From the NCBI GenBank assembly GCA_947258755.1, contig CAMYJO010000004.1:35550-99549 (forward strand): 64,000 bases of DNA, given 5' to 3'. The first letter of the stretch is position 1, and each line of letters begins with the position of its first letter. The DNA is from an uncultured Gammaproteobacteria bacterium (GTDB taxonomy: Bacteria; Pseudomonadota; Gammaproteobacteria; JAADHQ01). Under the pieces are notes generated by a model. It had not been told where the DNA came from, searched no databases, and was given only the letters and a program-made list of their open reading frames with translations. The position numbers and the translations under genes are program-made. Below are positions 16,102 to 26,112 of this stretch, in pieces.

Positions 16102-17868
16102 ATGGGCCGCATCCCGCAATCATTCATTGATGAACTATTAAACCGTATCGATATCGTTGATGTCATCGATGCGCGTGTGCCGCTGAAAAAGGCCGGTAGT
16201 AACTACAAGGCCTGCTGTCCTTTTCACACCGAAAAAACCCCGTCGTTTACCGTCAGCCAGCCAAAGCAGTTTTATCATTGCTTTGGTTGTGGCGCGCACG
16301 GCACCGCGATCAGCTTCTTGATGGAATATGACCGTCTGGACTTCGTCGATGCGATCGAAGACCTGGCGCAGCAGGCCGGACTTGAAGTCGAGCGTGAGCA
16401 AGGCAGCAGCCAGCCACAACAACGCGAAGATAATCTTTACGACATCATGCAACAGGCTGCAGACTTTTATAAACAACAGCTACGCTCGCATCCACAAGCG
16501 CAGCAGGCGGTAGACTACTTGAAGCAACGCGGCATGAGTGGCGAAATAGCCGCCGAGTTCGGCGTCGGCTATGCGCCACCAGGCTGGGACAATCTGATCA
16601 AGGCCCTGGGTAAGGATGAAGCCGCGCGCAAACAACTGGCGCGCGCCGGCATGGCGATTGAGCATGACAACAAGGGCCCCTACGATCGTTTTCGTGAGCG
16701 CATTATGATCCCGATCACGGACCGGCGCGGGCGCATTATCGCCTTTGGTGGTCGCATTCTGTCCAGCGAAGATGAACACGGACCCAAATACCTGAACTCT
16801 CCGGAAACCCCTATTTTTCACAAGGGGCGTGAATTGTACGGACTGTATGAAGCCCGTAAGGCAATCAGAAACCCGCAAAAACTGCTGGTTGTTGAAGGCT
16901 ATATGGATGTCCTGGCGCTGGCGCAATTCGACATACGTTATGCCGTTGCCACCCTCGGTACGGCGACCACCAAAGAGCACCTGGAAACATTGTTTCGCGT
17001 TGTGCCGCGCATCATCTTTTGTTTTGACGGCGACCGCGCCGGACGTGAGGCCGCCTGGCGCGCGCTGGAAAATGCCCTGCCGGTGATGCACGAGGGGCGC
17101 GAGGCTGCCTTCCTGTTCCTACCCGACGGCGAGGACCCGGATAGCCTGGTCAGGCAGGAGGGGCGTGAGGCCTTCGAGCAACGCGTTGATCAGGCCATGC
17201 CGTTATCACGCTTTTTACTGGATCAACTATCACAACAAGTGGACCTGGATAGTATCGACGGTCGTGCCCGCCTGGTGGAATTGAGCCGGCCCATGCTAAA
17301 CCGCGTGCCGGACAAGGTCTTCCGTCATATGATGTACACCCAGCTCGAACGTACGGTCGGCATGAAGACCGGGCAACTACAACAGCTTGTTGAGCAGGAT
17401 GGCACAGCGCAAACTATTCCTACCCCGAATAGACGCCCCGCCAAACCAGGCAAAAACTCACCCATTCGGCAGGCCATCAACCTGATTGTGCAAAAACCAG
17501 CCTTGGCGGCAAACATAGCAGAGGCGGCCTTTCTGCAGGACCTGGATCTGCCCGGTGCAAAACTCTTACATGAATTGCTTGAAATTGTCCGTAACGATCC
17601 CCAGATTAATACCGCAGCCCTGCTGGAACGATGGCGCGACAAGCCGGAGCAGGTACACCTGATGAAACTGGCTGAAAACCAGCTACCCGGTGATGATCAG
17701 GGGCTGGAAGAAGAGCTGCAAGACATCATTCTTTACCTGCAAAGGCAATTAAAGATGCAGCGTTGGCATTTTCTGCAAGAAAAACTGACCTTCTCTGGGC
17801 TGGATGAAGAGGAACTTATTGAGTGGAATCAATTACTTAATGAAAACAACGCGCCCCAGGACAAATAA
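16102..17868 (+). CDS. dnaG: DNA primase
   Basis: CPFH...CFGC zinc finger, KYLNSPET, VEGYMDV, FDGD Toprim. Confidence 0.97.
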   Translation: MGRIPQSFIDELLNRIDIVDVIDARVPLKKAGSNYKACCPFHTEKTPSFTVSQPKQFYHCFGCGAHGTAISFLMEYDRLDFVDAIEDLAQQAGLEVEREQGSSQPQQREDNLYDIMQQAADFYKQQLRSHPQAQQAVDYLKQRGMSGEIAAEFGVGYAPPGWDNLIKALGKDEAARKQLARAGMAIEHDNKGPYDRFRERIMIPITDRRGRIIAFGGRILSSEDEHGPKYLNSPETPIFHKGRELYGLYEARKAIRNPQKLLVVEGYMDVLALAQFDIRYAVATLGTATTKEHLETLFRVVPRIIFCFDGDRAGREAAWRALENALPVMHEGREAAFLFLPDGEDPDSLVRQEGREAFEQRVDQAMPLSRFLLDQLSQQVDLDSIDGRARLVELSRPMLNRVPDKVFRHMMYTQLERTVGMKTGQLQQLVEQDGTAQTIPTPNRRPAKPGKNSPIRQAINLIVQKPALAANIAEAAFLQDLDLPGAKLLHELLEIVRNDPQINTAALLERWRDKPEQVHLMKLAENQLPGDDQGLEEELQDIILYLQRQLKMQRWHFLQEKLTFSGLDEEELIEWNQLLNENNAPQDK

Positions 17869-17964: not shown

Positions 17965-19827
17965 GTGAGTGAAATGAATCAGGAAAAAATCAACGATAAA
18001 GGCCATGATAAGCAGTCCAGGCTTAGGATGCTTATTGCCAAAGGTAAGGAAAAAGGCTTTCTGACCTATCGGGAAGTGAACGATCACTTGCCCAATGAAA
18101 TTGTTGACCCTGACCAGATCGAGGAGATCATCAGCGTCATCACGGAAATGGGTATATCCGTACATGAAACGGCCCCAGATGCCGACACCCTGCTGATGCA
18201 CCAGGGCAATAAAGAAACCGACGAAGATGCGGCTGAAGAAGCTGCGGCCGCCCTGGCCTCGGTAGAAGGCGATTTCGGCCGTACTACCGATCCCGTGCGT
18301 ATGTATATGCGCGAAATGGGCACGGTTGAACTGCTGACCCGTGAAGGCGAGATCAAGATCGCCAAACGTATCGAGGCCGGTCAGAAACAGGTCCTCGAGG
18401 CGCTCGCCAGTTATCCGTCCACAATTACCCATATTCTGGCCGTTTATGACGCCATCATCGCGGAAGAAACCCGTATCACCGACCTGATTACCGGTTTTGT
18501 TGACCCCGATGAAGACGATAATTTTCCACCGCCAGCCGCCCAGGCACCGGCCAAAGATAGCACCGAGGCCGCCGACAGCGATGATGATGAGGAAGAAGAA
18601 GTCGTCGATACCGGTCCAGATCCGGAAGAGGTTGCCAGTCGCTTTGCCGATTTGAAAAAATTATATGGTAAATACCAGACTGTCGCCAAGAAGCATGGCT
18701 CCGCTGACGAACGATCACTGAAACAATTCGACAAGGCCATTGAAGTGTTTATGCAGTTCAAGCTGGCGCCCAAGGTCATCGACAGATTACTGACCGACCT
18801 GCGCAGCATGGTCCAGCGTATCCGCAAGCACGAACGTGTGATCATGGATATCTGCGTGCAAAAGGCACATATGCCGCGCAAGGAATTCATTACCTCGTTC
18901 CCGGACAATGAAACCGATATCAATTGGCTCGACCAACAGATCAAGGCCGGACAGAAATATTCGCCCGTACTGGAAGAATATGCTGACGAGATCCGTATCG
19001 CGCAAAAGAAATTGTTGAAAATACAGGACGAGACCGGCCTCAGTATTAAAGAGATCAAGGACATCAATCGTCGCATGTCAATCGGTGAGGCCAAGTCACG
19101 CCGCGCGAAAAAGGAAATGGTTGAAGCCAATCTGCGACTGGTTATCTCGATCGCAAAGAAATACACCAACCGTGGCCTGCAATTCCTTGACCTGATCCAG
19201 GAAGGTAATATTGGCCTGATGAAGGCCGTCGACAAGTTCGAGTACCGCCGTGGTTACAAGTTCTCGACCTATGCGACCTGGTGGATTCGCCAGGCGATCA
19301 CGCGTTCGATTGCCGACCAGGCGCGCACCATCCGTATCCCGGTACATATGATCGAGACCATCAACAAGCTCAATCGTATCGCCCGCCAGATGCTGCAGGA
19401 AATGGGACGTGAACCCACACCAGAAGAACTGGCCGAACGCATGGAAATGCCGGAAGACAAAATCCGCAAGGTATTAAAGATCGCCAAGGAGCCGATTTCG
19501 ATGGAAACACCGATCGGTGATGACGAAGACTCACATCTGGGTGATTTCATCGAAGACCTGAATGTCATGTCGCCATCCGATTCCGCCAACTCGGAAGGAC
19601 TGCGCGAAGCCACGCATTATGTACTGACCGGCCTGACCCCGCGTGAAGCCAAGGTCCTGCGCATGCGTTTTGGTATCGACATGAATACCGACCATACGCT
19701 GGAAGAGGTCGGCAAACAGTTCGACGTAACCCGTGAGCGTATCCGTCAGATCGAAGCCAAGGCCCTGCGCAAGCTGCGTCATCCTTCGCGTTCAGAAGCA
19801 CTGCGTAGCTTTCTCGACCTGGAATGA
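17965..19827 (+). CDS. rpoD: RNA polymerase sigma factor RpoD
   Basis: [33 protein letters not shown], region 4 TRERIRQIE. Confidence 0.98.
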
Positions 19828-19966: not shown

Positions 19967-20139
19967 ACAGAATTCAACCGTTTAAATTCCCCCTTCACTG
20001 ATAACACAATCCGAGAAAACCCCTATCCTCGCAAGCAACTCGTCCCTAGCCACATGACGGCAGCCACACCCAAGATAGGGGCGGACAAGCCATTATTAAA
20101 CTATCGAAAAAAATATAAATTGTGTAAAATAGCCGTCAT

Positions 20140-20241
20140 CACGGGCCTGTAGCTCGTCGCTCCCGACCATCCGTGGTCTTCGCGCCATAAGGCCATCCAT
20201 GGCCAAAAGTTGGTTAGCAAGGAGTCTGAGCTACAGTCCCG
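20140..20241 (+). repeat. duplicated and inverted fragments of the tRNA 5' end in the tRNA leader
   Basis: CACGGGCCTGTAGCTC (20140-20155), 52-bp insert, AGTTGGTTAG (20208-20217); CTGAGCTACAGTCCCG (20226-20241) is 15/16 complementary to 20249-20264. Confidence 0.85.
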
Positions 20242-20249
20242 AAAAACAC

Positions 20250-20583
20250 GGGCCTGTAGCTCAGTTGGTTAGAGCAGTGGACTCATCAAAATGGTGCGTT
20301 CATATCGAAAGGTATGAAATGAACGGGATGAATTCAGGGAAACCTTAACAGCCATATTATGGTGGGCTGATGGCGATCCTGAGCCAAGCCGAAGGTACAC
20401 CTTCGGAAGGTGCAGAGACTACCTGGGGACTGGTGTAAACCAAGCGTCCTTAATAACAGGCAAGAGCGTCCCGCATCCTAACAAGCCCTCGCGTTGAGGA
20501 TGATGAGATAGTCCGCTCCTGATAGAAATATCCGGAACAAGTGAATCCATTGGTCGAAGGTTCAAGTCCTTCCGGGCCCACCA
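20250..20583 (+). tRNA. tRNA-Ile(CAU), intron-split; exons 20250-20286 and 20544-20583
   Basis: Joined exons give a 77-nt cloverleaf: GGGCCTG/CGGGCCC acceptor stem, GTGGA-CTCATAA-TCCAT anticodon arm, TTCAAGT loop, ACCA end; ileX-like sequence and position after rpoD. Confidence 0.92.
20287..20543 (+). ncRNA. group I intron (IC3-like), 257 nt, no ORF
   Basis: P1 CAU/GUG with U-G at the splice site; P2 with GAAA loop; P3 CGGGATG/CGTCCCG; P4 TTCAGG/CCTGAG; P7 GACTA (20417-21)/TAGTC (20509-13); P8; P9 GATA-GAAA-TATC; terminal G at 20543. Confidence 0.92.
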
Positions 20584-20606
20584 AATTACCCTTTTCGTAT
20601 ACAAAT

Positions 20607-20772
20607 TGTGCATGAAAGCATAGTTTGGCCGATACCGGCCTGAAGCGGTCCTACATTAACCTTGTCATTGCGAACGTAGTGAAGCAATCTGTCAAATCAC
20701 ATATCCGACTTACATGCAGCCTGGAAAGTTAAGTTAACAGATCGCCGCGGGAAAAAAACGCCTCGCGATGAC
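20607..20772. repeat. composite intergenic repeat, copy 1
   Basis: 25 bp identical to 35898-35922, then GTCATTGCGAAC..GAAGCAATC ... GATCGCCGCG..CTCGCGATGAC palindromic element. Confidence 0.75.
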
Positions 20773-21003: not shown

Positions 21004-24000
21004 CTATTGGCAAGCACCTAAATCTTCGAGATTAAACGCCGTAGTTTTTAGCAGCTTGTCACGACCGACATACATCTGCGCACCCACCGGCATCACCTCA
21101 AGATCAAAACATGTTGTACTGTTCGCAGGGATAGTAATATCAATTCCATCAACACCCTTGTTTGCAACGCTGAGGATATAATCCAGGCCGTTGTCCCCCA
21201 ATGTTGCATCGATCGTATCACCGCTGGGCTCGAGCAGAACACCGGTAGCTGTTACAGGATTCGTTGAAGTCAGATAACCACTGTAAGGTGACCAGCTAAG
21301 TCCTCCACCAACAACACGCAATAACCACTGTGCATCTGGCCCAGCCGCACTACAATCTTTCCAAAGATATAAACCTGGATCAGTGGCATTATCATATACA
21401 GGCTGACCGCATTCGGCTGGCTCCGGTGCAATGTTACAACTAGCCAGGGTATCAAGATTCAATGGCGCAGTGACGAGCTGCTTACCTTCACCAAGGTAAA
21501 CAGGCAAAGTACTATCCTGGATAAAGCAGGCATTGGCTGCTGATGGCGTAAACCCAAACCCATCTTGCGCAGCATTCCAGACTCTCAATTCATAAATTAT
21601 CTCATTGATATTAGTAACATTATCAACTATATCACCACCTTCCAGGCTAACGGTCGTCAGGTTGGTAAAACCAGTATCTGAAGTCACTTTACCACCTGCA
21701 AACACGCCGCCGGGATCACCGCCACCACTCAAGCGTACTTCCCACTGACCGGTTACGCAATCCTTCCACAGGAAAATACCCTGCTCTGTTGCAAGATCAT
21801 AAGCAGGCTCACCGCATTCTGCTGAAGGCGGTACGACATCACATGCAGCCAGTGTTGTCAGGTTGAAAGGGCTATCGACCATGATGCGATTTTGCCCTAA
21901 ATAGATAGGAACATTCGGTGCTGTTGTGGTCAAGCAGGCATCAGCAGCTGGCACAAAGTTCAAGCCATCTTCGCCCCCGCCCCATACTTTCATTGCATAG
22001 CTCAAAATATCCGGATTGGTGTTATCAATCACATCATTGGGTTCAAAACTGTATTCAGTGTAGGTTAGACCGCCGACAGATTCGATATAGCCATCGTAGA
22101 AAACACCATTATTATCACCACCGCCCGTAACACGCATTCTCCACTCGCCACTGCCATCACATAGCTTCCAGATGAATACGCCTTTCTCGGTAGACCGATC
22201 ATAGACTGGTTCAAAACAGGCATCCGTCACAGTACTACTATCGTTATCCTGGATTGTCACTGTCGCAGTACTGGTAGCCAATGTCAGGTTCGACGGACCA
22301 CTCAAATCAACAGTAAAACTTTCAGTTGCTTCAGGTGTAGCATCCTCGATAATCGGTATCAACACCGACTTACTAGTTTCACCGATCGCGTAGGTCAATG
22401 TCATGTTGACTGCCGTGTAGTCACTACCACTTAAGGCACTATCATCAGTCGTACTAATCACAATAGACGCTGGTTTGCGTGGCAACGTGGACAGGTCAAC
22501 GCTAAGCAGCGCATTACCGGCATTTTCCAGAACGGTAACATCGGCCACAGAAACAGATGGTACTGTGCGCGTGACATCGTTCGGATAAGCATCTTCAGTA
22601 TCCGGCACACCATCACCATCGCTGTCTGTTGGCGCAGGTCCACCACCCGGTTGATTCGGATTGGTATCGACCGAATCATCAATACCATCGCTATCTGCAT
22701 CAACGCCACCATTACTGTCAGCGCTACCGATCATGCCATCGCCATTGGTATCAAGAGCGGCATTAACCGTTGTATCAATATCGTAGGCGGTACCATCATT
22801 GGCCGCATTATTAGACTCGACATCCAGGAAGTCCGGGATACCATCACCATCGCTATCCGGTGGAGTTGTAACACTACCCTGGTCATTAATCAGGTCATCG
22901 ACCAGATAATTGCCATCAGCATCAATCAAACCTGCCTCAACAACATCAGGGATCGTGTCATTATCACTATCCAGATCATTCTCATTAACGACACCATCAC
23001 CATCCGCATCATTCGAACTCAACGTAGTTACGCTTATAGATATATCATCAACAGCGGCCTCTACGAGTGAGCCGGAGCCTGCATCGGCAGCCTCAACCAG
23101 CAGTCGAATCGTCTGACCCGCATAAGAAGAGACATCGACACTGAAGGCCGTCCAGCTTGCTGCACGGTTGGTACCGTTACCAAGCTGTGACAGAATGGTT
23201 TGCTGGTTAGTACCGGAGCGGATTGAAACACGGAAGAAATCAGCGCTGCTTGCGTTGCTACGATGGGCGAAGTAATAGTTGAACTTCAACGTCGTCACAC
23301 CTGCCGGCAAATTTATCGAAGGCGAGAGCGCGGAGGTCACACCATTGTCAATATCATATGTACCCGCACCACTACCCGCTGCAGCTTGTGTTACCAACGC
23401 ATTCGAACCACTTGTGGTGTTGTTTAACTGCATTGCATACCCACTGCTGGACGTTGCTTCCGGATTAGCGACTTCCCATTGACCAGTTGTCGCGGTGTCC
23501 GTGTTAAACGGGTTAGTAGCCCACCCCTGGTTAGTCTCAAAATCATCCAGCAATTGATCGCTCGGCTGCCCCGCCACGAATTCCGCTGCATTAGTTATAC
23601 CATCATTATCAGCATCGATATCACTATTATCACCAATGCCGTCACCATCTGTATCCGTTGTTTCTGTAGCATCATTCGGGAAAGCATCCGCATTATCGCC
23701 TACGCCATCACCGTCACTGTCAGCCGTCTCATTCGGATTATTCGGGAAGGCATCCGCATTATCACCCACACCATCATTATCACTGTCAACTGATTCAGTA
23801 GGATCATTAGGGAATACATCGGCATTATCACCAACGCCATCACCATCACTATCGACTGATTCATTTGGGTTATATGGGAAGGCATCATTGATATCTGGAA
23901 CACCATCGTTATCATCATCCAGATCAACATCATCTGTTAAGCCATCACCATCAAAGTCAAGGACACAAGGACCTAATGTGGTCAGGTCAAATGGCACGTT

Positions 24001-26112
24001 GATTCGTTTTCCTGTATTACCCAGGTATACCTGCTCAAAATCATTTCCTTCAAGTGTGAAACAGGTTCTTGACTGCCCCGCGGTACTGAAATTGATGCCT
24101 TTACTATTACCGATATCCTGTTGTACGCCTATAGAGAAATCAATAATCGCAGCAACAGAGTTGTCGACAATATCACCGGCACCGGCTGAAATCGGATTTA
24201 CATAACCAAAATTAGAATCACCGACTATCTGACCGACAGCCATCTGCACGCGACCTTCTGTCAAACGACCAAGACCACCTTTTGCACGCATACGCCAGTT
24301 ATCTGTACCGCACTCACGCCAGATCAGCATTGCTGGACCTAATGTGGGGGTGTAAACAGGTTGGCCACACTCATCACCAGGCTGAAATGTCACATGCACC
24401 GGTGTGCCTGCACCTACTACGTTAAGGCTTCCACCTTCAGTTGCAGTATAGAGTGTGTCGGCAGTGACGTTATTGAATGTATCAACTTGACCTGAAGGCC
24501 ACTCAATTCGTACCTGATCAACCGTTGTATTGGCTGCCAGTCCAAAATGGATTCTGGTGTGATTTTGCGACCATCGATGATAACCACCGCTTTGCTCACG
24601 CAGCTGAATCACACCGCCAGCAGTCACATAAACCTTGGCACCAATTGCCGCACGTGGACTTGTTGTACCAACCAGATCCATCTGGATCCAGTGATTGCCA
24701 TTACCCTTGTTACGTATCAGGGTATCAGGGCCACCAAAACTATATGGCCAAAAAAGTAAACCATTAGATACAGCCAGGTCCATAAATCCATCGACATCGT
24801 AATCAGCAGTAATGACTGAATCTGATAGACCAAACTGAATACCTGCACCGATTGGACCTTCAGCACCATGCGACTGCACTTCTACAAAAGTACCATCACC
24901 CTGATTATCGAAATATCGATTGGCAAGATTTTCAACGCCGTCACGACATGCCATATAAAGGTCAAGATCCATATCATTATCAAAATCTGCGGCAACGACA
25001 CTGACACAGGATTTAAGGCCACTTAGTCCGATCCCGGAAACCCACTCGATTCCAGACGCGGTATTGACACCATACATTGTCGCTTGCGGCTCATCGGCAG
25101 TTTGCAGACCATTCATAACTGGATCGCTCACGGTATTTTCAGCAATGACACGAACATAGGCGGCACGGTTATCAGTATCAGATACAGTCCATAAGCCTGT
25201 CTGTGAACTGTACCTGATTGAAACCCCGCGATCACTATCAGCTGTGTTAGGCCCATTCGTATTTAATACAAATTCTTGCTCCAGATCAAACGCACCGCCA
25301 TATTTACCATCCACCAGAAATTTTACTTCGCCTGGAGCGGAAAAAGTGAAAGATGTGCCAGTGCCTGCACGGAACCAGGCTTCAATGCGATTATCATTTA
25401 TTTTACTTGCGCCTGCAGGACGTAATGCGCCTCTCGTTACGACAATATCTGTTCGCAGGTCATTATTAAAATCACCCAGTGCTGCATCGTTAGAAAGGCC
25501 AATCGCAGGAATTAAACTACTGGAGGCACCGGTAACAGATTTAGGGAATGTACCTTCATCTCCACATATTTCTTCTAAATCACCATTCGCATCTAGATCG
25601 AATAGCAGAATATATTGACCATTACAGCTGACGTCACTTTCGAGCGCGCGGTCACTGTCAGTATTATTCCATGCAGAATAATTTTGAGCCGTTAAGAGGC
25701 TGCTTTTTGTGAAGTAACCACCGCTGTCAGTGTTATTAATAAATAACTCATTTTCATCGCCTACAATAATGTCATCGTCGCCATCATTATCGTAATCGCC
25801 CCAGGCCCCGCCGTGCACATCAAACTGTGTGTTACCAATCCAGTAGCCATTCATATTAACGTCATAGATCATCGTCACATCATCAAAATCACCATCACCG
25901 GTGTTTCGGTACATTCTTGGAAAATCTCTGTGCCCTGAGTTCCAGATATCCGGCCATTTGTCGCCATTAAGATTGCCCCACGCAATACCCCAGGTTTCCG
26001 TGCCTCGTGTAAAACCAAGCTTGTCAGATTTATCTTCAAACTGAACTGGTGATGCATAGCCCAGTGAACTGAATGTCATGGAAAGAAGAACGGACAATAT
26101 TCGAATGTTCAT
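21004..26112 (-). CDS. large secreted Ca-binding adhesin-like protein (FG-GAP/ASPIC-UnbV, TSP3-like repeats, Calx-beta, four 4-Cys repeats)
   Basis: Signal peptide; GDYDNDGDDD/DFDNDMDLD motifs; HFGL...RIEWPSG; DSDGDGVGDNADAFP repeats; SGSDY...ESFTVDLS. Confidence 0.8.
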   Translation of the reverse strand: MNIRILSVLLSMTFSSLGYASPVQFEDKSDKLGFTRGTETWGIAWGNLNGDKWPDIWNSGHRDFPRMYRNTGDGDFDDVTMIYDVNMNGYWIGNTQFDVHGGAWGDYDNDGDDDIIVGDENELFINNTDSGGYFTKSSLLTAQNYSAWNNTDSDRALESDVSCNGQYILLFDLDANGDLEEICGDEGTFPKSVTGASSSLIPAIGLSNDAALGDFNNDLRTDIVVTRGALRPAGASKINDNRIEAWFRAGTGTSFTFSAPGEVKFLVDGKYGGAFDLEQEFVLNTNGPNTADSDRGVSIRYSSQTGLWTVSDTDNRAAYVRVIAENTVSDPVMNGLQTADEPQATMYGVNTASGIEWVSGIGLSGLKSCVSVVAADFDNDMDLDLYMACRDGVENLANRYFDNQGDGTFVEVQSHGAEGPIGAGIQFGLSDSVITADYDVDGFMDLAVSNGLLFWPYSFGGPDTLIRNKGNGNHWIQMDLVGTTSPRAAIGAKVYVTAGGVIQLREQSGGYHRWSQNHTRIHFGLAANTTVDQVRIEWPSGQVDTFNNVTADTLYTATEGGSLNVVGAGTPVHVTFQPGDECGQPVYTPTLGPAMLIWRECGTDNWRMRAKGGLGRLTEGRVQMAVGQIVGDSNFGYVNPISAGAGDIVDNSVAAIIDFSIGVQQDIGNSKGINFSTAGQSRTCFTLEGNDFEQVYLGNTGKRINVPFDLTTLGPCVLDFDGDGLTDDVDLDDDNDGVPDINDAFPYNPNESVDSDGDGVGDNADVFPNDPTESVDSDNDGVGDNADAFPNNPNETADSDGDGVGDNADAFPNDATETTDTDGDGIGDNSDIDADNDGITNAAEFVAGQPSDQLLDDFETNQGWATNPFNTDTATTGQWEVANPEATSSSGYAMQLNNTTSGSNALVTQAAAGSGAGTYDIDNGVTSALSPSINLPAGVTTLKFNYYFAHRSNASSADFFRVSIRSGTNQQTILSQLGNGTNRAASWTAFSVDVSSYAGQTIRLLVEAADAGSGSLVEAAVDDISISVTTLSSNDADGDGVVNENDLDSDNDTIPDVVEAGLIDADGNYLVDDLINDQGSVTTPPDSDGDGIPDFLDVESNNAANDGTAYDIDTTVNAALDTNGDGMIGSADSNGGVDADSDGIDDSVDTNPNQPGGGPAPTDSDGDGVPDTEDAYPNDVTRTVPSVSVADVTVLENAGNALLSVDLSTLPRKPASIVISTTDDSALSGSDYTAVNMTLTYAIGETSKSVLIPIIEDATPEATESFTVDLSGPSNLTLATSTATVTIQDNDSSTVTDACFEPVYDRSTEKGVFIWKLCDGSGEWRMRVTGGGDNNGVFYDGYIESVGGLTYTEYSFEPNDVIDNTNPDILSYAMKVWGGGEDGLNFVPAADACLTTTAPNVPIYLGQNRIMVDSPFNLTTLAACDVVPPSAECGEPAYDLATEQGIFLWKDCVTGQWEVRLSGGGDPGGVFAGGKVTSDTGFTNLTTVSLEGGDIVDNVTNINEIIYELRVWNAAQDGFGFTPSAANACFIQDSTLPVYLGEGKQLVTAPLNLDTLASCNIAPEPAECGQPVYDNATDPGLYLWKDCSAAGPDAQWLLRVVGGGLSWSPYSGYLTSTNPVTATGVLLEPSGDTIDATLGDNGLDYILSVANKGVDGIDITIPANSTTCFDLEVMPVGAQMYVGRDKLLKTTAFNLEDLGACQ

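Follow-up and report, generated by a model that had tools for sequence, protein, structure and literature searches.

A group I intron with a P7.1-like hairpin in the tRNA-Ile2 gene ileX of an uncultured gammaproteobacterium

The transfer RNA (tRNA) gene described here lies in a window of 64,000 nucleotides (nt), the whole stretch of DNA that was analyzed, taken from contig CAMYJO010000004.1 of the uncultured gammaproteobacterial assembly GCA_947258755.1. The gene is ileX, encoding tRNA-Ile2 with anticodon CAU, and it is interrupted directly after the anticodon by a group I intron. We regard it as highly probable that ileX is split by a self-splicing ribozyme that lacks an open reading frame (ORF), and that a hairpin between P7 and the 3' strand of P3 serves as a core stabilizer of the P7.1 type. 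A preliminary description made from the letters alone had proposed a group I intron in a tRNA-Ile(CAU) gene. A covariance-model match, covariation across 28 homologues and the identity of the gene as ileX all bear this out, and the coordinates of the 257-nt interruption following the CAU anticodon (20287-20543) were exact.

Joining of the two exons in silico gave a 77-nt cloverleaf that was called by ARAGORN with anticodon CAT. The Rfam group I intron model (Intron_gpI, RF00028) matched positions 20275-20535 of the plus strand with a score of 83.2 bits and an E value of 1.1e-19. The gathering score of this family is 50 bits and the match spanned model positions 1-253 of 253, so the covariance-model check proposed for the locus returned a full-length hit. 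RF00028 was the sole Rfam family above threshold within the 64-kb window, and the intron is the only one of group I in the 3.2-Mb genome. An ORF of 64 amino acids that overlaps the intron on the minus strand (20419-20613) had no Pfam match. It had been suggested that annotation pipelines may overlook the gene, and they do: it was missed by default ARAGORN and by the Rfam tRNA model. The intron mode of ARAGORN, a further suggested check, found the gene but not the group I boundaries, reporting instead a 242-nt 'intron' at position 39. These boundaries were rejected; the same mode also mis-assigned anticodons in homologues.

To describe the fold, a structure comprising the four tRNA stems, helices P1, P2, P3, P4, P5, P5a, P6, P6a, P7, P8 and P9 and two stems of the hairpin (92 pairs in all) was written from the sequence of this genome and counted on an alignment of 28 homologues found by BLAST (Table 1). 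Of all cells, 98.2% were paired, as against 35-47% when the 3' partner was slid by 1-3 columns. Derivation of the structure from one of the aligned sequences gives it an advantage over the slid controls, but the compensatory changes are independent of that: 44 of the 92 pairs change on both sides, including three pairs in P4, four in P5a and five in P6a. None of 500 shuffles reached any of the observed pairing measures. P7 is invariant and so carries no covariation information. A thermodynamic fold of the whole intron independently recovered P2, P3, P4, P6a, P8, P9 and the inner part of the hairpin. The U.G wobble at the splice site (20286.20294) is present in 28/28 homologues, and the internal guide G-U-G is invariant in the alignment of ileX-type homologues. 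As judged from sequence, the element is a group I intron by its RF00028 score, its P1 with a U.G pair, its terminal guanosine (omega-G) and the covariation of its P3-P7 and P4-P6 domains. The P1-P9 core pairings and terminal G named in the preliminary description are thus those recovered by the model match and by covariation across the 28 homologues.

Table 1. Features of the split ileX gene, with positions in the 64,000-nt window. Counts refer to the alignment of 28 homologues.
Feature	Position	Strand	Description	Evidence
tRNA(CAU) gene	20250-20583	+	Two exons and group I intron	
5' exon of tRNA-Ile2	20250-20286	+	37 nt, end CTCAT; acceptor 5' strand, D arm, anticodon stem 5' strand, loop C-U, anticodon CAU	Sequence reading, in silico joining
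Group I intron	20287-20543	+	257 nt, last base G, without own ORF	RF00028, 83.2 bits
P1	20284-20296	+	Exon CAU and first intron C paired with guide G-GUG	Pairs kept in 27-28/28
P2	20299-20318	+	8 bp, GAAA tetraloop	All 8 pairs change on both sides
P3 5' strand	20324-20330	+	Partner 20467-20473	100% paired, 2 compensatory pairs
P4-P5-P5a-P6-P6a domain	20334-20411	+		Covariation and thermodynamic fold
P7 5' strand	20415-20421	+	GAGACUA, bulged A, partner 20509-20514	Invariant 28/28
P7.1-like hairpin	20422-20460	+	39 nt, between P7 5' strand and P3 3' strand; outer stem CCUG/CAGG, inner stem GGGAC/GUCCU, distal UGGU-GUAA-ACCA	
A-rich 3' bulge of hairpin	20451-20456	+	UAAUAA; family consensus UAAUNA	
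P3 3' strand	20467-20473	+		Covariation count
P8	20476-20500	+	With AA bulge	Covariation count
P7 3' strand	20509-20514	+	UAGUCC	
P9	20518-20535	+	GAAA tetraloop; U.C mismatch 20520/20533 in this genome	
Terminal guanosine (omega-G)	20543	+	At 3' splice site	Invariant 28/28
3' exon of tRNA-Ile2	20544-20583	+	40 nt, AATCC start, CCA end; A37 A38, anticodon stem 3' strand, variable loop, T arm, acceptor 3' strand, CCA	

The split gene is an ileX orthologue because of its dnaG-rpoD context, its likeness to Escherichia coli ileX, and the presence in the genome of separate Met tRNAs and of TilS. Directly upstream on the same strand are the genes for DNA primase, dnaG (16102-17868), and sigma-70, rpoD (17965-19827); the order in E. 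coli K-12 is dnaG, rpoD, mug, ileX, with ileX annotated as tRNA-Ile(CAU). The joined exons are identical to E. coli ileX at 63 of 77 positions and to each of the genome's two other CAT tRNAs at 54 of 77. These two and the split ileX make up the three CAT tRNAs of the genome. The first of the other two has a mismatch at 1-72 and a GGG/CCC anticodon stem, which we take to be the marks of an initiator, whereas the second resembles elongator tRNA-Met in features that presumably mark it as such. The initiator-like tRNA (contig C11, 47305-47381) has U1 opposite U72; the usual bacterial initiator mismatch at 1-72 is C-A. The genome's own tRNA-Lys genes are very similar to ileX. The N-domain of TilS (TIGR02432) was found in an open frame of 456 amino acids with 186.1 bits against a cut-off of 93.6. 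From these sequences we propose that the split tRNA-Ile2 would decode AUA after lysidine modification by TilS.

Relative to RF00028, the residues from 20422 onward are an insertion between the conserved GACUA and the 3' strand of P3. The hairpin that they form directly adjoins P7, and six bases lie between it and the 3' strand of P3. Folded alone, 20422-20460 gave three stems of 4, 5 and 4 bp from the base outward, with a 6-nt 3' bulge between the first and second, a 3-nt bulge between the second and third, and a GUAA loop at the tip. Across 110 unique sequences the outer stem CCUG/CAGG is invariant and paired in every one, and in 109-110 the inner stem is paired as well. At its pair 4 there is GC in 47 sequences, AU in 56 and GU in seven, and the mutual information for inner pairs 4 and 5 is 0.70 and 0.43, respectively. 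The variable base of the UAAUNA bulge is A in 51, G in 39, C in 15 and U in 5. A 6-nt loop of the form U-N-N-A-G-Y closes the hairpin in 63 of the 110; longer hairpins insert a helix between the U and the AGY, and the distal part ranges from the 6-nt loop to about 40 nt. The motif search pattern itself fixed part of the bulge and two bases of the inner stem. In the BLAST-found set, which is independent of that motif, the hairpin is present in 28/28 and its bulge is near-invariant. The base, bulge and loop of the hairpin are conserved like the catalytic core, while P2, P5a, P6a, P8 and P9 change by compensatory substitution. A search for a long-range covariation partner of the variable bulge and loop positions gave none (mutual information ≤0.22).

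A pattern that combined the bulge motif with the flanking P7 and P3 strands was scanned against one-per-species genomes and matched at least 120 loci. Among the matches listed, most records were metagenome-assembled genomes (MAGs) of Gammaproteobacteria (Woeseiaceae, Steroidobacteraceae, Lysobacterales, Pseudomonadales, Thiohalomonadales and others), with one isolate, Luteimonas panaciterrae, and a few MAGs labelled as other phyla. At 112 of the 120 listed loci the intron has tRNA halves on both sides, recognizable by C-U-C-A-U, a T loop and an anticodon stem whose strands are complementary; of the other eight loci, six run into a contig end and two gave no clear reading. Intron lengths at the listed loci run from 223 to 393 nt with a median of 242.5, and the 257 nt found here are typical of it. 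Of 400 genomes sampled evenly from the class, 27, this one included, gave a full-length match to the intron (E value 1e-13 or better); they belong to 24 of 320 genera. One match is to a homologous intron that has the hairpin and lies in a Lys-like tRNA of anticodon CUU (G018, contig C40, 1501-1814, minus strand), a gene that adjoins His, Arg and Pro tRNAs. As read from the sequence, the guide of this intron is GAG, compared with GUG elsewhere, matching the change of its exon to CUU. A pattern search for ileX introns of Azoarcus size (186-216 nt) found none in 401 sampled genomes of the class. The preliminary description had named the extra element between P7 and P3 as one that the Azoarcus intron lacks. 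The element is real and supported by covariation, but it is not special to this genome: the hairpin is a hallmark of a large clade of ileX introns, counting at least 120 species representatives and 26 of the 400 sampled genomes, which reaches into phages.

Indeed, the hairpin pattern matched 39 IMG/VR viral contigs, none of which had tRNA-half flanks under a filter that allowed any anticodon ending in T. Six viral introns were viewed by eye; some have ORF-like sequence inside, and one is followed by a tRNA-like 3' half. In the viral introns the outer stem varies, always by compensation, and all nine pairs are formed in 17 of 17 unique sequences. One viral contig has two intron copies about 780 nt apart (L228 and L229). 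BLAST of the intron against phage records matched 12: five from Klebsiella, two each from Escherichia, Vibrio and Synechococcus, and one uncultured. The match in Klebsiella phage Muenster (MT708547.1, 528-838) falls within a tRNA cluster, in a gap that bears no annotation, and scores 104 bits with RF00028. Its flanks resemble the halves of an ileX-like gene, with 231 nt inserted after CAT, and GACUA is followed by a hairpin with a UAAUA bulge. The joined exons gave no ARAGORN call and have an unusually long D loop, so the ileX-like gene is a candidate.

ARAGORN found 36 uninterrupted tRNAs in the genome, among which there was neither a second Ile2-like gene nor a tRNA with a TAT anticodon. In 720 ORFs of at least 400 codons ATA makes up 11.7 per 1000 codons and 17.6% of Ile codons, and it occurs in 706 of them, rpoD included. 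Because the split gene is the sole tRNA-Ile2 gene found and AUA is common, the cell would depend on splicing. That this is the only tRNA-Ile2 gene, a condition set in the preliminary description, holds in this draft assembly, whose 49 contigs yielded no intron-free copy. The same applies to two intron carriers assembled as single contigs, G116 (99% complete) and G125 (89% complete), in which no other Ile2-like gene was found. A third single-contig carrier, G165, has one further exon-like pair, with the match pattern of this genome's tRNA-Lys(UUU). Two genomes of the same genus, G003 and G001, carry the intron; two others, G002 (95% complete) and G004 (79% complete), showed no ileX at all and are uninformative either way.

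Partial copies of the intron-bearing gene recur. G001 has a degenerate second copy in which P2 is replaced by tRNA-like sequence (contig C21, 513-833), and in G006 a fragment at a contig end (contig C149) corresponds to query positions 249-334 of 334 nt, that is, the 3' end of the intron and the 3' exon. In the present genome the 16 bases cacgggcctgtagctc are found at 20140 and again at 20247, the start of the gene. The two copies enclose a repeat of ~53 nt (20155-20208) that has at least 18 further copies in the genome; tRNA positions ~14-35 also recur there in degenerate form, and positions 1-13 in inverted orientation. The fold of this leader (20140-20249) has an energy of -52.5 kcal/mol (z -4.65). 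It is missing from G003 and G001 of the same genus, where the counterpart of ~20100-20142 adjoins the tRNA directly. From its sequence the leader looks like an insertion with a partial duplication of the 5' exon.

RNA data for the locus were sparse. No run contained half or more of the sampled words of the stretch, and six RNA runs contained small shares. Four runs were compared, all as contigs and at 85% likeness, a comparison in which uncovered parts carry no meaning. In metatranscriptome X15 contigs run from the 5' exon across the boundary into the intron, and one contig (depth 28, side 30) joins 20286 to 20544, omitting exactly 257 nt. Loose ends in the same output show uninterrupted ileX genes. 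The intron-like pieces and the contigs bridging exon and intron could come from DNA carry-over or from other organisms. The exon-exon joint of X15 is not counted as proof of splicing.

Group I introns in ileX are already known. Besides the Azoarcus intron, they have been reported, in the paper on tRNAscan-SE 2.0, in the tRNA-Ile2 genes of Acidovorax and Burkholderia, where the genes were missed by tRNA finders (PMC8450103). The annotation gap is the same as here; those hosts are betaproteobacterial, and the passage on them describes no structure. Apparently new are the large gammaproteobacterial clade, the conserved P7.1-like module with its A-rich bulge, and the occurrence in phages. No description of the clade, of P7.1 in tRNA-type introns or of phage tRNA introns was found in the literature searched, outside of which most subscription journals lay.

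The intron of Azoarcus reportedly has GAAA loops on P2 and P9, as here, and is said to form its P1 from CAU and GUG. The published account gives it 205 nt and lists helices P2-P9 and P9.0 but no P7.1 (PMC13168695). It shares with the present intron a tRNA-Ile host gene, insertion in the anticodon loop and the form of a small ORF-less ribozyme with P2-P9 (PMC13168695). The 3' exon is 40 nt in both, and the 5' exon is 37 nt here compared with 39 nt in the published construct. The contrast drawn in the preliminary description agrees with that account, as the Azoarcus intron is the shorter (205 versus 257 nt) and has, by the published helix list, no helix between P7 and the 3' strand of P3 (PMC13168695). 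In a comparison with subgroup IC3, to which the Azoarcus and cyanobacterial tRNA introns belong, the type of host gene and the anticodon-loop site match, whereas the extra hairpin departs from the Azoarcus list.

In subgroup IA, P7.1 is located right after the 5' strand of P7. The present intron and that subgroup, which includes the T4 td and Twort introns and the IStrons, have an additional helix in domain 7 in common (PMC4227781). In introns of subgroup IA2, domain 7 is described as bearing the hairpins P7.1 and P7.2, and P9, with P9.0-P9.2, as being extended (PMC4227781), and in the Twort intron P7.1 and P7.2 are reported to be peripheral elements that surround the guanosine pocket and lend it stability (PMC1995217). 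Unlike these introns, the ileX intron has one hairpin with an A-rich 3' bulge and a single P9 hairpin, and it is not assigned to IA2. The bulge of P5abc in the Tetrahymena intron may resemble the UAAUNA bulge in sequence. That A-rich bulge, the 'metal core', is reported to fold around Mg2+ and to pack against the core, and so offers a precedent for an A-rich bulge in a peripheral helix acting as a docking element (PMC5894117). However, it is located in P5a and not in P7.1, it belongs to another intron subgroup, and the three-way junction of P5abc has no counterpart here.

The action of the ribozyme can be sketched as follows. On folding of the precursor, P1 would arise from the exon end CAU and the intron guide GUG, the U.G wobble lying where the RNA is cut. 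The 5' splice site would be attacked by a free guanosine bound in P7; the terminal G of the intron would then replace that guanosine, and the 5' exon would attack the 3' splice site, yielding the 77-nt tRNA and the free intron. The intron probably splices without protein help. By analogy with the introns above, the hairpin is likely to be a stabilizing peripheral element: it would stack on P7, and its A-rich bulge may dock on the P3-P7 core and so stabilize the guanosine-binding pocket. The role of the hairpin would lie in the ribozyme itself and not be specific to the tRNA, because the hairpin is present in introns of different host genes.

A bolder form of this proposal is possible, though we hold it only tentatively. 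The hairpin and its UAAUNA bulge would be a self-contained tertiary module, not described before, that clamps the P7-P3 junction, where guanosine binds, in tRNA-type ribozymes that are minimal in other respects, and that defines a separate and very widespread subgroup moving between similar tRNAs and hosts. Such introns could have spread among Ile2, Lys-CUU and possibly Thr tRNAs as the guide re-paired with a new exon, while phages, some with ileX-like genes of their own, would carry them from host to host.

Several observations weigh against a self-splicing ribozyme with a stabilizing hairpin on which the cell depends. The covariation gives no docking partner and the invariant residues are uninformative in this respect, so the docking site is a guess. 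P9 of this genome has a U.C mismatch, and a mismatch is found at the same pair in G003 and G001. Since many organisms have almost the same ileX exons, the X15 joint could equally represent an ileX without intron from a different organism. Finally, the assembly is a draft of 49 contigs, though scored 100% complete, and its tRNA list is without a His anticodon, tRNA-Ile(GAT) and tRNA-Ala(TGC). With the assembly in that many contigs and the tRNA list incomplete, a second ileX copy could sit in the unassembled part.

These points leave room for other explanations. The intron could be real and its hairpin a protein-binding site, for a splicing helper, a chaperone or a processing enzyme, or else a regulatory switch. 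This is unlikely, though the most probable of the alternatives; in its favour, the sequence of stem, bulge and loop is conserved beyond the need for pairing (CCUG/CAGG in 110/110) and no covariation partner within the RNA was found. A common protein is made less likely by the presence of the module in many bacterial families, in viral contigs and in jumbo phages. Nor is there a conserved neighbouring gene; the upstream flanks of six homologues are unrelated beyond a same-genus pair. In addition, the related Azoarcus intron is reported to self-splice in vitro (PMC13168695).

It is very improbable that the split gene is a dead or dispensable copy, whose intron would have no need to splice, and that AUA is read by a tRNA missing from the draft assembly. 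The incomplete tRNA list, the P9 mismatch and the repeat-laden leader with its partial duplicate of the 5' end of the gene would fit such a copy, as would the degenerate copies seen elsewhere (the second copy in G001 and the fragment in G006). Against this, exons and core are intact with every invariant residue of the family kept, the gene is the only copy in two single-contig relatives, none of the 36 tRNAs found has a TAT anticodon, and TilS is retained. The compensatory changes across the clade, as read from the alignment, are moreover evident purifying selection. Least probable of all is a hairpin that is the neutral remnant of an insertion at a site that tolerates it, for instance a small mobile repeat or what is left of a homing-endonuclease ORF since lost. 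The variation of the distal part from a 6-nt loop to about 40 nt does show a tip that tolerates insertions, and the viral intron L215 has ORF-like sequence, seen by eye, elsewhere in the intron. Yet 110 unique sequences retain the stems at the base, the bulge and the U...AGY of the loop, while other helices change freely by compensatory substitution, and the hairpin is lost in none of the 28 BLAST-found members.

The clade matters for annotation, since in ~1 in 15 of the sampled genomes of the class the tRNA that decodes AUA, an essential one, is invisible to standard finders. Carrier genomes will appear to lack tRNA-Ile2, and the deposited record of a Klebsiella jumbo phage has the same gap. 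For RNA structure, the Azoarcus ribozyme is a main model of RNA folding, and here an abundant relative adds one highly conserved peripheral module. The pair offers a clean system for the effect of the module on stability, Mg2+ dependence and rate. For evolution, the occurrence of the module in bacterial tRNA introns and phage introns, together with a Lys tRNA with a matched guide, provides material on how ORF-less introns spread.

Other group I introns of the class were surveyed by an RF00028 scan of 151 genomes, 26 of which had matches with an E value of 1e-5 or better. Host genes were read by eye from the flanks, automated joining of flanks followed by ARAGORN having been dropped because of many ambiguous solutions. 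Outside the ileX clade the hosts were tRNA-Leu(UAA), one tRNA-Arg(CCU) and 23S ribosomal RNA. The tRNA-Leu and tRNA-Arg introns are small and ORF-less like the present one and, by eye, have similar core strings over P3-P8, with the same strings around P4, P6 and P7. In contrast to the ileX intron, they pass from the 5' strand of P7 to the 3' strand of P3 within about 3 nt, with no hairpin, and the tRNA-Leu intron is inserted one base into the anticodon.

Four further loci from this survey differ in host or site. An intron in G034 (contig C36, ~1500-1745; RF00028, 83 bits) follows an apparent UGU anticodon in a Thr-like tRNA and has a different hairpin, GGGGG...CCCCC, at the P7/P3 site. G026 (contig C46, minus strand) has an unrelated group I intron in a CAU tRNA, apparently before the anticodon (33/34). 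The introns of G093 (contig C100) and G150 (contig C1) have flanks like the T arm and 3' end of transfer-messenger RNA, with apparent insertion in the T loop; at 37 and 36 bits, respectively, they fall below the Rfam threshold. Downstream of ileX in the window, the minus strand carries an ORF of 1702 amino acids (21004-26112) with ASPIC/UnbV, FG-GAP and Calx-beta domains.

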